DNA of 64,000 nucleotides from Octopus vulgaris. Lineage: Eukaryota. Positions 4,600 through 56,949 of this stretch are shown here, one piece after another. The stretch is from positions 178,126,001-178,190,000 of the forward strand of contig OX597816.1 in the NCBI GenBank assembly GCA_951406725.2, given 5' to 3'. Both the position numbers and the translations under genes were made by a program. Position 1 is the first letter of the stretch; the number at the start of each line of letters is the position of its first letter. The notes below the pieces were generated by a model. That model had not been told where the DNA came from. It made no database searches and worked only from the letters and a program-made list of their open reading frames with translations.

Positions 4600-5025
4600 T
4601 GGCTAATCCTTAAGGGTGGATGCTATTGTAGGTTGTAGCCCCAGGAACGCATCACCATCTGGCTATTGACACACTTTCTGTGCCTTATCAGTATTTGCAA
4701 AGATAAGTCATCCTTCCCATATCCAACTTAACGTGATACACAGGGAGCCGGATTTCTGGGTATTGATCCGTCATCAGCGTGTGACAATCACCGGTTGTCG
4801 ATGTGAAGTTGTTCCCACTGCAAATATATATATCCATTTTCCAGTGACGAAAAGTCCCTGATATCTTTATATGTATATTTCTACCGTAAATTTATAATAC
4901 AAATAAGAAAATGCAGAAACAAATTTAGTTTGTTCATCAACTTACGGATTATAATCTAACATTATAATATCCGTAAGTTGATGAACAAACTAAATTTGTT
5001 TCTCCAATTTCTTATTTGTATTATA
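4600..5025 (-). mobile_element. PLE pseudo-LTR-like element with degenerate hammerhead (4739-4783) plus hairpin 4893-5025
   Basis: 4600-4850 is a diverged inverted homolog of 6086-6360. Minus strand reads CACACG-CTGATGA-CGG...CCA-GAAA-TCCGGC-TC-CCTGTG. Confidence 0.6.
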
Positions 5026-5108
5026 TATTTATATATATATATTATATATATATATATATATATATATATATATATATATATATATATATATATATATATA
5101 TATATATA

Positions 5109-5445
5109 GGCGCAGGAGTGGCTGTGTGGTTCCGGGTTCAGTCCCACTGCGTGGCACCTTGGGCTAGTGTCTTCTAGTATAGCCTCGGGCCGACCAAAGC
5201 CTTGTGAGCGGATTTGGTAGACGGAAAGTGAAAGAAGCGTGTATGTGCGTGTATATTTGTGTGTCTGTGTTTGTCCCCCTAGCATTGCTTGACAACCGAT
5301 GCTGGTGTGTTTATGTCCCCGTCACTTAGCGGTTCGGCAAAAGAGACCGATAGAATAAGTACTGGGCTTACAAAGAATAAGTCCCAGGGTCGAGTTACTC
5401 GATTAAAGGCGGTGCTCCAGTATGACCGCAGTCAAAATGACTGAA
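5109..5445 (+). mobile_element. SINE family A
   Basis: GGCGCAGGAGTGGCTGTGTGG...GGTTCAGTCCC through tail; small head deletion. Confidence 0.9.
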
Positions 5446-5938
5446 AAAGTATTAGAAAATATATATATACTGGAAAGGCAATACTCTCGTATTGCATTAC
5501 TAATTTTATATATATATATGTATTTATATATATATATATATATATATATATATATATATTTGTATATTTATATATATATGTTTGTATATTTATAGATACA
5601 CTTATATTTATGTATATATATATATATATATATATATATATATATATATATATATATATATATATATTTATATATATTTGTATATTTATATATATATATT
5701 TATATATATAGCTGAAACTGGAAAAATCAAAATCAATCAAAATCATATTTATATATACATATATATATACATATACATATACATATATATATATATATAT
5801 ATATATATATATATATATATATATATATATATATATATATGTGTGTGTGTGTGTGTGTGTGTGTGTGTGTGTGTATATATGACCGTTGGCGATTTTTTTT
5901 CCTCTGTCTTCCCTTCTCTGGATCTTTCCTTCTCCTAT

Positions 5939-5966
5939 GTTTCTGACGAAGAGCTCCGCTCGAAAC
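5939..5966 (+). ncRNA. Truncated minimal hammerhead motif
   Basis: GTTT-CTGACGA-A-GAGC-TCC-GCTC-GAAAC, then interrupted. A copy with the 3' part intact is at 18187-18221 (-). Confidence 0.6.
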
Positions 5967-5970
5967 TCGA

Positions 5971-6360
5971 AGCGTGTGACAATCATGGTTGTCGATGAGA
6001 AGTCAGATCCCCTCACAAATACATATACTTTTTCCAGTGTCGATTTGACACTGATGTTGAAAAAGTGAAATTTATCATTGTTTGATTTCACTTTTTCAAC
6101 ATCAGAGTCAAATCGACACTGGAAAAAGTATATGTATTTGTGAGGGGATCTGACTTCTTATCGACAACCATGATTGTCACACGCTGATGAAAGGTAAAGA
6201 CCTTGAAACTCGGGTACGTGTGTATCATGTGTTGAAGACGGGGAGGATGACTTCCCTTCACAAATACTGACAGGACACAGATAGTGTGTCTATAGCCAGC
6301 TGGAGGAGGTATCTTCCTGGGGCTACAAACTACAGTAGCATCCACCCTTATGGGTTAGCC
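5971..6360 (+). mobile_element. Fold-back PLE pseudo-LTR-like element (arms 5971-6070 / 6086-6185, tail to ~6360)
   Basis: ~100 bp inverted repeat with about 2 mismatches. The right arm continues into a hammerhead and a tail ending at (TA)n. Confidence 0.75.
6178..6222 (+). ncRNA. Type I minimal hammerhead ribozyme
   Basis: Stem I CACACG/CGTGTG; core CTGATGA; stem II AAGGT-AAAG-ACCTT; GAAAC-TCGG-GTA. Predicted cleavage after A6216. Confidence 0.85.
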
Positions 6361-6582
6361 ATATATATATATATATATATATATATATATATATATGTAT
6401 GTATGTATGTATGTATGTATGTATGTATATATTTATATATATATATATATACGCAACAAGAAATGGAGGGGATCAAGAGGTGGTATTCATCAACTTTTAG
6501 ACATATTATGTCTATTGATTTATTTTTTAAAAAGTAGTTATAATAATATACATATTAAGCTTTACAAATATGATATATAAAA

Positions 6583-53399: not shown

Positions 53400-54138
53400 A
53401 CATACATACATACATACATACATACAAACATACATACATACATGCATACATACATACATACATACATACATACATACATACATACATACATACATACATG
53501 CATACATACATACATACATACATGCATACATACATACATACATACATAAATACATACATACATACATACATACATACATACATACATACATAAATACATA
53601 CATATATACATACATACATACATACATACATATATATACATACATACATACATACACACAAGCTTGCATTCATACATCCATCCATCCATACATACATACA
53701 TACATACATACATACATACATAAATACATACATACATACATACATACATACATACATAAATACATACATACATACATACATACATACATATATACATACA
53801 TACATATATATACATACATACATACATACAAACAAGCTTGCATTCATACATCCATCCATCCATCCATCCATCCATCCATACATACATACATACATACATA
53901 CATACATACATACATACATACATACATACATACATAAATACATACATACATACATACATACATACATACATACATACATATATACATACATACATATATA
54001 TACATACATACATACATACATACACACAAGCTTGCATTCATACATCCATCCATCCATCCATCCATACATACATACATACATACATACATACATACATACA
54101 TACATACATACATACATACATAAATACATACATATACA
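53400..54138 (+). repeat. (CATA)n array with higher-order unit
   Basis: CAAGCTTGCATTCATACATCCATCC recurs at ~53660, ~53833 and ~54027. Confidence 0.92.
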
Positions 54139-55214
54139 TCAACTACCCTTATGGAGACAAACTTCACGTTGGGCATTTATTTTTATTTTTTTCATTTTTC
54201 TCGTCTTTTCTCTCCTCTTTTCACTTTACACCCTATTTTGTAAGAAGACAATGTAGAAACCTTATATAAGAAAATGTATGTCTGCGAAATGCGAGATCTT
54301 AAACGATAAAAGTGCCAGGTTAGGGATCTCATCACAGACTGATTGAACCTGCAAGTGGTACTAAGAAACCAATAATACCTTTTCCATGATCGAGTAGTTG
54401 GCGGCTAAACTGTCTCCTTCACTTGAGTAGCGTACTACTCCTTTTGAGGAGAGTGTCTGGACACCCAGGAGGGATAAAAATAAGACCTGTCGAAGGTCAT
54501 CTAGTTAAGGAAGGCAATGACAGAACGAAACAACGCTAAAGCTTTATCCGATGGAAGAACTCACGCTTAATGGGAAAGACTTTCGTTGTAGAGTCATCAG
54601 CGCACTGGGAGAAGCGTGTGATGCATAGCGACGAAATATTTTTACTAACCTAAATAAATAGAACACCAGGAACTAGCAGTGTCTCATACGCTACCGCAAT
54701 ATAATTTGTATGGACCCTCGACTATAAGAAAATACGGTATGACAAAAACTATTTACTTGTCCGTTGAGGACTGTAGGTAATATGACCGCCACCCACTCCC
54801 ATTGCTAAAATGTTTTAACTCTTCATATGCCGTATCATACATGGCAAATACTCATATTTATATCATTAATGTATAGTAATTCTTTCATTACAACAGTAAC
54901 ATCTTTGTGTTTTTTTTGCTAAAATAATTTAGGTTTTTGTTTTTTGTTTTTTGAATTTTAAAGGAAAAACTAAGTGTATAGATATATACATATGTTAATT
55001 GCTAGCAAGGGCACAGTATTCCAATTTTCAATCACACTCCACTACCAAATATATTAAAGGTTTACAAATCGATATCGTGCCTTACTTTTGTGTTAGCAGC
55101 ACGATGTTCTCATTTTTATGTTTATTACTACGGATTCTCCATAAAATTTTGAGATAGCACGGAAAGTTGCGACGTTTCGTATACGAAAAAGTAAACAATG
55201 CGATCGAAAATAAT

Positions 55215-55353
55215 TATTTTAAATTTTTGCCACAAGGGCAACTTGGAGTAGTTGGGGATGAATCGATTACATCGACCTCAGTGTTCAACTGGTACTTATT
55301 TTATCGACCCAGAAAGGATGAAGGGCAAAGTCCACCTCGGCGGAATTTCAACT
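55215..55353 (-). mobile_element. SINE family B fragment flanked by a 19 bp duplication
   Basis: CAATGCGATCGAAAATAAT at ~55196 and ~55354. The host is an imperfect inverted repeat (~55157-55210 / 55529-55589). Confidence 0.7.
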
Positions 55354-55979
55354 CAATGCGATCGAAAATAATAAAAGTAGGTAGTGTGTGTATATGCATA
55401 TTTGAAGAGTTATTGAATATGCATATTTCAAGAGGCATTGTTCTTTCATCAACACTACATTACAATGTGGTGCTGATAAAAGAGCAATAACTACTGAAAT
55501 ATGCATATACACTCATTATTTTTCTATCTTCGATTGCATTGTTTACATCAGCGTATTCGTATAAGAAATGTCATTACTTTCAGTGCTGGCTGAATTCTAT
55601 AAAAAATGTGTGCAAATAAATTTTAAAGCATATATATATCTATCTATCTATATATATATATATATATATAGAAGCAAATTAGTTGGTCAAGAAAATCTCT
55701 ATGAGAGATGACTGCAGTGATTATACTGTGAAGCAAAGTTTATTGCCGCTTAAACGTGACCGTTCTGTAGGAGCCAACGTAACTCCTGTATTTAACCGCA
55801 GGAGGACGCCTCCTCCAGCTGCTAACTATATATACTTAAAAAGAAAATGTAGAAATGGTATGAAAGTATGTTTAAAAATTGTTTTAAATTTGTTACAGTG
55901 AATGCAAAATACTAAAGAATACTAGTAGAGATCCCCGGCGTTGCTCGAGAATAAAATGGCATAGTTTTTTTATTGTCTT

Positions 55980-56307
55980 GTTTGTTTTAGCCATGTGGCC
56001 ATGGTGGAGCACCGCCTTTAGTCGAACAAATCGATGCCAGAATTTATTCTTTGTAAGCCTAGTACTTATTCTCTCGGTATCTTTTGCTGAACCGCTGGGT
56101 TATGGGGAAGTAAACACAGCAACATCTGTTGTCAAGCGACGGTGGGGGTATAAGCACACACACACACACACACACACACACACACACACACACACACACA
56201 CACACACACACACACACACAAATATACATATACATATACGACAGTCTTCTTTCAGTTTCCGTGTACAAAATCCTCTCACAAGGCTTTGGTCGGCCTGAGG
56301 CTATAGT
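55980..56307 (-). mobile_element. SINE family A, diverged, head missing
   Basis: Body and tail match. Confidence 0.82.
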
Positions 56308-56841
56308 ATATATATATATATATATTTATACACACACACACACACACATATATATATATATATATATATATATATATATATATATATATATATATATATA
56401 TATATACATGGTGCTAACTTAACTGTATCTATTTTTAGTATTTTTTTATTATTATTATTTTTATTATTATTATTATTATTATTATTATTATTATTATTAA
56501 TAGTAATTTTTATTAACTTTTATAGCTTTAGAATTTTATGAACTGTACCACGGATTTAATTATTATTTTTCATCTCCATATGTGTTAGCCCTTTTTTTTA
56601 TAAAAAAAACTATTAGCCAAATATGTATAATATCGGTACTTATTAATATTAATATATACACTGTTATGTATTTTGTTTTATATTGTTCTGTTTACCTTCC
56701 TTTTTGTACAAATGTGTATTATATTATATAAGTGTAGCATTATGATATATAAGTTTTTATATTTTACATTTTTATATTTTTATATTTATATGTATATGAT
56801 TATATAATATTTTTCACTATTATAACAAATTTAATTTAATT

Positions 56842-56949
56842 CTCTGAAGAGGCCGTGGGGCATCCTTGTTAATGCCTCATTTATACCTGCCTTTATGGCT
56901 TATAGGTTAAATGAGGTATGACTGTCCTCACTGCCGAAACAGCTGTCAG
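56842..56949 (+). ncRNA. Hammerhead with long hairpin stem II
   Basis: CT-CTGAAGA-GGC-C-GTGGGG...ATGCCTCATTTA..TAAATGAGGTAT...CCTCAC-T-GCC-GAAAC-AGCT-GTC-AG. Confidence 0.72.

Follow-up and report, generated by a model that had tools for sequence, protein, structure and literature searches.

Which elements carry the hammerhead ribozyme motifs that crowd one locus of the Octopus vulgaris genome, and which enzyme copies these elements? The locus studied here, referred to as the window, is a stretch of 64,000 nucleotides on C3 (assembly GCA_951406725.2, contig OX597816.1, positions 178,126,001 to 178,190,000; genome size 2.8 Gb). An original prediction, made from the letters of the window, had proposed about 15–20 minimal hammerheads belonging to at least ten non-coding families, and thus a large, probably under-annotated radiation of retrozymes or Penelope-like elements (PLEs). 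A hammerhead motif or a recognizable remnant was found at all 22 places named there, and re-parsing of the motifs gave the same predicted cuts after 6216, 17840, 52500, and 56947. Since five motif pairs represent the two arms of one inverted insertion each, the motifs are now counted as approximately 19 insertions of approximately 16 families. Judged by their sequence, they are minimal type I hammerhead ribozymes that are predicted to cleave as dimers only. The best explanation, to which a probability of roughly 85% is assigned, is that type I hammerheads reside at the 3' ends of many PLEs and in two non-coding units that are likely copied by PLE enzymes. PLE hammerheads, retrozymes, and the link between both have already been published; no published account was found of the octopus members or of the evidence obtained from the anatomy of their insertions.

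Seven of the window families were followed upstream, whereby the numbers of candidate places given below are rough and do not represent copy numbers. Four families reached PLE frames with reverse transcriptase (RT) or GIY-YIG parts, two turned out to be non-coding units, and one (49778) reached neither. The four frame-linked families are 5'-truncated PLE ends and not non-coding elements, so that the non-coding nature originally proposed holds for two of the seven. The family of the motif at 10865, with about 3,000 candidate places at 95% identity, features its hammerhead about 470–515 nt beyond the stop codon. One of its members (L121:2941-6876) holds an unbroken frame of 1,312 amino acids with DKSG, YVDD, a CX4CxxC linker, and GIY-YIG with CCHH, followed by the hammerhead (7381-7440) 515 nt past the frame and preceded by an inverted truncated copy at the 5' end. 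RVT_1, GIY-YIG, and HTH_animal are found in look-alike protein clusters of this frame; the PLE frames were scarcely recognized when searched against Pfam and PDB. In 29 of 29 occurrences (some of them from overlapping loci), this family shows an A9C core and a non-palindromic helix III. The motif previously listed as decayed at 10868 (+) is therefore a member of a young, intact PLE family with a variant core. Three near-identical repeats of 5.78 kb, each containing a Neptune-type copy that is truncated and has an inverted arm, were observed in L119-L120 (C19:47.743-47.762 Mb).

The family of the motif at 52427 (2,042 candidates, 97% identical) leads to a thumb and GIY-YIG frame about 2.2 kb upstream across low-complexity sequence (L185, L186), with a CxCx5C linker and CxxC/CxH motifs as marks of the Hydra clade. 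Genome-wide, internal deletions in loop II vary between copies of this family, the stems and core being constant. For the 13546/14782 family (3,541 candidates), a Hydra-like frame was found about 1.1 kb upstream in 4 out of 15 loci, and for the 37140 family a GIY-YIG frame was detected upstream at one locus (L035), together with an inverted arm. Copies of the 49778 family (927 candidates) differ in their 5' ends, which are ragged across 900 bp or more, and a tail is present in some of them. On their diagnostic zinc-finger motifs, the frames can probably be assigned to the Neptune clade (L121) and the Hydra clade (L185/L186, L238).

Comparisons with published systems refer here and below to the accessible parts of the cited articles. 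The L121 frame shares the C-terminal GIY-YIG, CX2-5CxxC, and CCHH with Neptune PLEs, whereas L185/L186 and L238 resemble Hydra PLEs in having the CxCX5C linker as well as E and N residues surrounded by CxxC and CxH, and in lacking CCHH (PMC8557442). An inverted truncated 5' copy, a one-sided tail, (TA)n targets, and a terminal-repeat hammerhead are likewise common to the octopus PLEs and the elements described there. In contrast, the octopus PLEs possess 3' untranslated parts of 1.1–2.2 kb and tails of 46–89 nt, compared to the described 30–40 bp, and the octopus Neptune frame contains a long low-complexity N-terminal insert, unlike the descriptions in PMC8557442.

The two remaining families consist of non-coding units arranged head to tail. 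The unit represented by the motif at 17788 is 468 bp long (GC 32%; 1,997 candidates), its longest stop-free frame comprising 76 codons; two motifs one unit apart were found at 25 loci, compared to none in the controls. Among the 43 distinct loci analyzed (45 fetched, two duplicates dropped), copies are 0.63–2.75 units long and end past the cut site at unit position 234 in 26 cases, at 145 in 13, and elsewhere in four. (TA)3 adjoins 34 of the 43 loci, compared to 6.7% of random places. An inverted 5' arm is present at 23 loci, and the arms differ in their end site in all 15 that could be classified. The unit represented by the motif at 6178 is 353 bp long (GC 42%; 2,388 candidates, 96–98% identical), has a longest stop-free frame of 88 codons, and is accompanied by relatives of 358–360 bp with identities down to 68%, several subfamilies coexisting. 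Here, 49 loci were considered (53 examined, four duplicates dropped). Their copies end at about position 217 in 29 cases, at about 173 in 17, and elsewhere in three; TA adjoins 36 loci, and four exact dimers were found (none in the control). The arms differ in end site in 19 of 19 classifiable insertions out of 22 inverted ones. For both units combined, this amounts to 34 out of 34. In the 353-bp unit, the stretch between the two end sites is the best-conserved part across subfamilies, and a 36-nt motif within this tail yielded 1,539 exact matches versus none for its control. Target-site duplications are indistinguishable in the (TA)n flanks of both units.

Based on their sequence, the 353–360-bp and 468-bp units are classified as putative retrozymes lacking long terminal repeats (non-LTR retrozymes). 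They share with the animal representatives the non-coding head-to-tail organization, a GC content below 45%, and one type I hammerhead per unit with a helix I of 6 bp (PMC7229834, PMC7761336). The 353–360-bp family, with its canonical 4-bp helix II, 6-nt loop, and short palindromic helix III, also resembles the mussel retrozymes, which have a unit size of 350–390 bp, whereas the 468-bp unit exceeds the usual 150–400 bp and has a long loop II (PMC7229834). Unlike the retrozymes of that study, the octopus units occur as dispersed copies ranging from less than one to 2.7 units, and no long arrays were seen. The hammerhead of the smaller unit (helix I 6 bp, helix II 4 bp, loop II YAAAYA-like in most copies) keeps its 18-pair structure in 84% of cells over ten diverged copies, eight pairs being changed on both sides. 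The resulting covariation score of 0.264, a value that related rows can inflate, compares to 0.178 ± 0.025 (reached in 0 of 500) and to at most 0.167 in slid controls. Predicted circles of both units fold at z −6.9 (353 bp) and −2.2 (468 bp), as determined with 60 shuffles, the strong folding of the former being another likeness to the animal retrozymes. Parts of the 468-bp unit are present in four sets of contigs that presumably derive from RNA, and in one set a joint leads back by 459 bases; a genomic tandem gives such a joint equally, and it was therefore not used as evidence for circles.

The autonomous and the non-autonomous families agree in that their copies have fixed 3' ends at two sites but ragged 5' ends, carry inverted 5' arms, and are flanked by (TA)n. 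The autonomous PLEs also show 5' truncation, the inverted 5' copy, and (TA)n targets, and their tail lies on one side only in 4/4 and 7/7 inverted loci displayed. Because the units bear the same two-site, one-sided-tail signature in 34/34 insertions, PLE enzymes are likely to copy them, in analogy to the anole Poseidon element. The anole PLE protein introduces nicks into both strands of AT-rich DNA and extends them, with reverse transcription starting at two internal sites; the stretch between these sites forms the genomic tail, which was called unique to PLEs, and the hammerhead was protein-assisted but dispensable for insertion in vitro (PMC11167929). Octopus PLEs share with Poseidon the AT-rich targets and a tail delimited by two internal start sites located downstream of the hammerhead, and in the Neptune family this tail covers the first codons of the element's own frame, as in Poseidon. 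The latter is autonomous, whereas in octopus the signature is also borne by units lacking a coding frame (PMC11167929).

Following this precedent, a PLE protein would nick both strands of AT-rich DNA (PMC11167929), and reverse transcription would begin within an RNA that is either an uncleaved multimer or a circle, at two internal sites that each give rise to one strand. Such a template is suggested because copies cross the cut site and exceed one unit. The two start sites would generate head-to-head arms with the tail on one arm alone, and early stops would leave fragments of 100–500 bp in which the ribozyme is retained by its closeness to the start sites. Given the self-complementary helix III, two copies on one transcript could pair and cleave, lone copies remaining silent. 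Differing loops cannot cross-pair, and this may account for the persistence of intact sense-strand cores (7560, 13593, 18217) in the intron of the GTP cyclohydrolase 1 gene (GCH1), which occupies the left part of the window. A more far-reaching reading combines several of these points: viroid-sized hammerhead RNA circles (353–360 and 468 nt), represented by thousands of copies in the genome, would be copied by PLE enzymes from two sites flanking the conserved 36-nt motif, which would serve for recognition, the scars would represent the first direct mechanistic evidence that PLE enzymes move animal retrozymes, and the A9C PLE would either possess a novel core variant that is active or prove that PLEs can do without cleavage. 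Taken jointly, this is proposed tentatively, the odds being somewhat below even.

A role of PLEs in retrozyme spread has been hypothesized before (PMC7229834, PMC7761336, PMC8557442), and non-autonomous head-to-tail PLE derivatives are known from Chlamydomonas (PMC8557442). A recent preprint (bioRxiv 10.64898/2026.07.22.740005) stated that retrozymes depend on PLEs and that many families occur mostly as monomers, based on co-occurrence in 35 species and on pseudo-LTR (pLTR) likeness in Xenopus. Its accessible text covers neither molluscs or cephalopods nor insertion anatomy, whereas octopus provides two-site, one-sided-tail evidence, with no pLTR likeness found. The main text of PMC7229834 does not mention inverted copies, tails, truncation, or microsatellites. 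Since 2020, the literature has described it as open which enzyme moves animal retrozymes, and the two-site signature on frame-less elements is independent support on this point. It also pinpoints RNA positions and a conserved motif that match the published in vitro PLE assay. No report of octopus hammerheads, or of retrozymes with tails or inversions, was found in a search outside of which Repbase, Dfam, subscription papers, and Lunse et al. 2017 lay. The last of these reportedly lists about 150,000 hammerhead variants, which may include octopus.

Several observations weigh against the proposed explanation. Only the 6178 motif folds better as a monomer than its shuffles (z −3.8), five others ranging from z −1.0 to +0.9, and the minimum-energy fold of this very motif collapses its core; cleavage and RNA circles are sequence-based predictions. 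Nine of the approximately 16 window families are beyond those followed to a frame or a unit, and three long copies of the 49778 family contain no coding frame within about 900 bp upstream. For the 353-bp unit, 28 of the 49 loci were chosen by the tail motif, which forces one arm beyond the first end. Unit tandems are rare and short (longest 2.28 units for the 353-bp and 2.75 for the 468-bp unit), unlike the long arrays of coral and axolotl. Local alignment of the unit tails with the tails of three other families gave no significant likeness (p 0.05–0.65), and the density of TA runs in the window exceeds that of the samples by a factor of just 1.4, which alone does not account for the tenfold motif excess described below. 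A likeness by eye between the 353-bp tail and the tail of the 52427 PLE was dropped (p 0.42).

The function of the hammerheads is less settled than their origin. They might be retained for protein binding or dimerization, most of them no longer cleaving and cleavage being unneeded for spread, a view that concerns function only and is compatible with the favored origin. Catalytic mutants of the anole element show normal insertion in vitro, and its hammerhead depends on the protein for cleavage (PMC11167929); moreover, eight of nine Xenopus retrozyme dimers failed to cleave (bioRxiv 10.64898/2026.07.22.740005). In octopus, a young family with unbroken frames and about 3,000 candidates carries the fixed A9C core and a non-palindromic helix III, and represents a natural test of the need for PLE hammerhead cleavage. 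Published core variants include C3U/G8A, A6C, and U15.1-A16.1; A9C is not among them in the accessible text (PMC3088659), nor was it found in the accessible hammerhead literature searched. On the other hand, the core is letter-identical across more than 20 families with turned-over stems, which fits selection on catalysis. Overall, loss of cleavage in most copies is regarded as unlikely, although it is the strongest of the competing views.

The turnover of the stems was evaluated using 41 palindromic core matches from the window and 80 further stretches, 20 of which came from a search for the ATAT loop. The matches fell into 23 families with one representative each; stems were not used for picking, and permuted 3' sides served as the control. 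Helix I forms 61 of 92 possible Watson–Crick pairs, compared to 24.6 ± 4.3 after permutation (reached in 0 of 10,000). For helix II, 54 of 92 pairs are formed when the first pair is skipped and 43 of 92 when flush, compared to 25.2 after permutation (0 of 5,000), two other offsets remaining at chance level. The original claim that stems are unrelated between families yet complementary within them was therefore borne out. Several single window copies show only two to three contiguous helix I pairs. Regarding helix III, the 8-base words are computed to form dimers at −7 to −13 kcal/mol and no monomer hairpin; the non-palindromic word of the 10865 family yields a dimer energy of +1.4 kcal/mol. 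Dimer pairing through helix III of PLE hammerheads has been described (PMC4209133, PMC6765202).

A further view holds that all families, including the short units, are 5'-truncated ends of autonomous PLEs, the units being local duplications of such ends. Four of the seven followed families are indeed PLE ends, most unit copies are less than 1.2 units long, and one local duplication of a hammerhead end exists (L223). However, the sequence upstream of a unit is always the end of the same unit, with spacings of 458–474 or 352–360 bp at dozens of unlinked loci, and neither a common non-unit upstream sequence nor an in-line PLE frame was found at the 43 and 49 loci, where the longest stop-free frames are those mentioned above. 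The view is thus largely refuted and considered quite improbable. The duplication in L223 (2181-2890) spans 353 bp, concerns the hammerhead end of an unrelated family, and adjoins a 468-bp-unit insertion.

Even less probable is that the units were moved by a long interspersed nuclear element (LINE), as conceivable from octopus LINEs at TA-rich sites and L1-type twin priming, or that they spread as a DNA-level satellite. Twin priming inverts the upstream part of one template, whereas the inverted arm of the units repeats the 3' end and terminates at the other fixed site in every classifiable case. Unit copies are dispersed and mostly shorter than two units, which does not correspond to satellite arrays. 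Moreover, two autonomous octopus PLEs show the same pattern, including the tail called unique to PLEs (PMC11167929). LINEs outnumber PLEs in O. vulgaris (PMC13282606), and the tail comparison with three families did not disclose a PLE partner, both of which would favor such a scenario.

The number of motifs was determined with a descriptor of the core only (C(T/C)GANGA-N4..130-GAAAC-N4-GTH), which recovered 11 motifs in the window, ten of them with a palindromic loop. Dinucleotide shuffling gave on average 0.005 matches (200 shuffles of the whole window) and 0.015 (200 shuffles in 500-bp blocks), with a maximum of one; hence none of the 400 reached ten, and the excess over shuffled sequence, a check named along with the original prediction and carried out here on the window and sampled stretches, was obtained. 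A palindromic loop was also present in 14 of the 19 GAAAC-N4-GTH words of the window (0.4–0.5 expected), in agreement with the palindromic helix III proposed originally. A wider descriptor requiring stems as well gave 11 matches versus 0.26 in shuffled sequence, and one loop type alone yielded 174 matches versus one for its reversed-pattern control. A strict descriptor (loop II of at most 40 nt, helix I of at least 4 bp) caught only three window motifs, the real loops being longer. The assumption of chance matches in AT-rich, repeat-rich DNA, in favor of which stands the lack of Rfam scores above the cut-off in the window and five family loci, is refuted by these shuffles, by reversed-pattern controls yielding 0–1, and by stems that were unused in the search and pair far beyond permutation.

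The complete type I core (C3-U4-G5-A6-N7-G8-A9, G12-A13-A14, A15.1-U16.1, H17) is present in 13 window motifs, namely the 11 descriptor matches plus 17794+ and 18217-, and is altered at 14785+, 10871+, 7107+/6692-, 4777-, and 35294+. The Rfam model RF00163 produced one sub-threshold match in the window (49677-49784, 26.8 bits versus a cut-off of 34) and no match in the five family loci; genome-wide, Rfam matched six of the 73 candidates scored. The bulk of the finding is a known phenomenon in a lineage from which no report of it was found, namely tens of thousands of PLE-type hammerheads that the Rfam model largely misses. Minimal PLE hammerheads have been described with thousands of copies per genome, many divergent families, and opposite-strand pairs (PMC4209133). 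In common with these metazoan pseudo-LTR hammerheads, the octopus motifs feature a short helix I and a tiny or absent palindromic helix III (PMC4209133, PMC6765202), a long helix II whose first base is often unpaired, mostly single dispersed truncated copies, and opposite-strand pairs 100–700 bp apart (PMC4209133). They differ from that type by a loop II of often 50–85 nt and by one young family with a fixed A9C core.

To estimate the abundance in the genome, forty 10-kb stretches at fixed coordinates were sampled. These 400 kb contained six palindromic cores versus 0.13 in shuffled sequence, i.e., 15 per Mb, which extrapolates to about 42,000 for the type with a 4-base palindromic loop (95% range 15,000–91,000), compared to 2,000–9,000 per genome in PMC4209133. 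At 156 per Mb, the window is about ten times denser than the genome (p 9e-6; counted by insertions, 8 versus 5, p 9e-5). A large radiation comprising many families is thus supported, whereas the window overstates its genomic density about tenfold. The suggested under-annotation applies to the ribozymes but not to the PLEs, for which 190 consensus sequences, 31 recently active families, and a share of 6.83% of the O. vulgaris genome have been reported; the words ribozyme and retrozyme were not found in the supplement of that study (PMC13282606). Up to 1.5 kb away from an element, motifs belonging to other families reach 61 per Mb (26 motifs in 423 kb, with each arm of a pair counted; p 5e-4) versus 15 per Mb. 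The local crowding is therefore likely due to elements that repeatedly inserted into the TA runs next to existing insertions, in addition to the choice of a rich window. A hotspot at the chromosome end was rejected, as 200 kb (14 distal C3 places and six near other ends) held four cores, none of them farther than 130 kb from the window. The density of TA runs (10.6 versus 7.7 per 10 kb) was likewise discarded as an explanation sufficient by itself.

The window features are compiled in Table 1. Compared to the original assignments, two motifs taken as intact are decayed, namely 14782+ (changed G12-A13-A14 box) and 17669- (mismatched helix III), whereas at 5939+ and 51660, both listed as decayed, the motif is interrupted by an insertion or inversion junction and whole motifs exist in the respective families. 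The motifs at 35587, 47839, 49917, and 56842 show only two to three contiguous helix I pairs, and helix II is broken in the window copy at 37140. Two half motifs, 17220- and 38589+, had been missed.

Table 1. Hammerhead-bearing elements predicted in the window, together with the GCH1 exon (window coordinates).
Position	Strand	Feature	Details
4525..4845	-	353-360-bp putative retrozyme superfamily, older copy	78% identical; C3 at 4777, degenerate 3' core; terminates at distal start site, TA run adjoining
5884..5970	+	Loop-less minimal hammerhead family, truncated end	CTGACGA...GAAAC; same family as 18217-; severed at junction with following insertion
5971..6071	-	353-bp putative retrozyme insertion, inverted 5' arm	
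6066..6364	+	Young 353-bp putative retrozyme, direct arm	0.85 unit, then (TA)n
6178..6222	+	Canonical type I hammerhead	Helix I 6 bp; helix II 4 bp with 6-nt loop; helix III 2 bp, 8 bases self-pair including two G-U; predicted cut after 6216
6546..6783	-	A9G insertion, inverted arm	CTGAAGG, AGCT loop, helix I unpaired
7016..7254	+	A9G insertion, direct arm	Hammerhead ~7104-7165
7502..7566	-	Hammerhead, intact core	Helix I 6 bp, ATAT loop; predicted cut after 7508; GCH1 intron sense strand
9601..10401	+	Neptune-type PLE frame, broken 3' part, 5'-truncated	RT thumb, CX4CxxC linker, GIY-YIG with CCHH
10865..10909	+	Neptune PLE hammerhead variant	CUGAUG-C (A9C), extra G; helix II 6 bp with GGAG loop; helix III AG-AA-CU, non-palindromic; predicted cut after 10904; copy ends ~11028 at proximal start site
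13471..13814	-	Hydra-type PLE end, inverted arm	Intact hammerhead 13546-13597, AGCT loop; predicted cut after 13550
13815..14960	+	Same Hydra-type PLE end, direct arm	~1 kb 3' untranslated sequence; decayed hammerhead 14782-14831 (GAAAAC); tail behind 14905
17168..17288	-	Short palindromic insertion	3' hammerhead half GAAAC-GATC-GTA at 17220; whole motif in L161
17528..17731	-	468-bp unit, inverted arm	Ends at unit position 145; hammerhead 17669-17727, helix III mismatched
17730..18078	+	468-bp unit, direct arm	0.75 unit; ends at unit position 234; (TA)n both sides; hammerhead 17788-17846, predicted cut after 17840
18187..18221	-	Loop-less minimal hammerhead GAAACGTT	Helix I 4 bp, one helix II mismatch; predicted cut after 18191
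28246..28587	-	GTP cyclohydrolase 1, first coding exon	Protein match
35291..35335	+	Common loop-less minimal hammerhead family, decayed member	Family form GAAACGTT
35587..35687	+	Hammerhead, intact core	Long helix II, GCGC loop; predicted cut after 35685
36477..37373	+	PLE 3' end	Hammerhead 37140-37238, GTAC loop; predicted cut after 37235
38589..38600	+	Isolated 3' half GAAAC-AGCT-GTA	5' core gone
47839..47925	-	Hammerhead, ACGT loop	Predicted cut after 47842; related to 37140 family
49624..50075	both	Inverted pair, one insertion	C3 at 49778- and 49922+, GATC loop; predicted cuts after 49683 and 50016
51611..51730	both	Palindromic insertion	Inversion point within hammerhead core; family's whole motif has GGAA loop II
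52110..52613	both	Young Hydra-type PLE end, inverted pair	Identical hammerheads 52148-52225 (-) and 52427-52504 (+), ATAT loop; predicted cuts after 52152 and 52500; tail on direct arm alone
56842..56949	+	Hammerhead, intact core	AGCT loop; predicted cut after 56947

Some observations on individual families deserve mention. In the 6546-7254 pair, both arms carry A9G, and a TA run plus about 230 bp of other sequence lie between them; no relative of this insertion was seen among the loci examined. Together with its flanks (56780-57050), the motif at 56842 shows 100% identity to an inverted pair on C1 (L302) along 171 bases, for which reason the family is regarded as very young. Among copies of the 468-bp unit that were not length-selected (L187-L206), 6 of 20 have their 5' end at positions 183-206; these ends lie in the tail hairpin of the preceding unit, with either 3' end, and a stop site, a bound protein, or a transcript start are possible causes. 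A GTAC-loop family in L252:64-1281 shows a partial tandem with 560-bp spacing and an inverted arm and abuts a 353-bp-unit insertion; it is possibly a third unit family or a pseudo-LTR pair.

The only exon listed in Table 1 (28587-28246 in reading direction) is 100% identical to the Octopus vulgaris protein labeled as GTP cyclohydrolase 1. The next GCH1 exon is located 12 kb to the left of the window, so that bases 1-28245 belong to a single intron of about 40 kb in total, the sense strand of which bears at least three intact hammerhead cores in this part. The remainder of the window is rich in microsatellites and repeats, the former dominating the repeat-finder output. Broken CR1/L2-type RT frames (RVT_1, E 2e-8) were identified at 7825-9613, immediately 5' of the PLE fragment. 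A DUF7083 fragment (LTR-retrotransposon gag-like) and a Tc1/mariner DDE_3 transposase remnant were noted on the minus strand at 43387-43725 and 50072-51081. Finally, long (TACA)n/(TGTA)n arrays occupy positions 30106-31052, 31764-33087, and 53400-54134, two of them being opposed with 700 bp in between.

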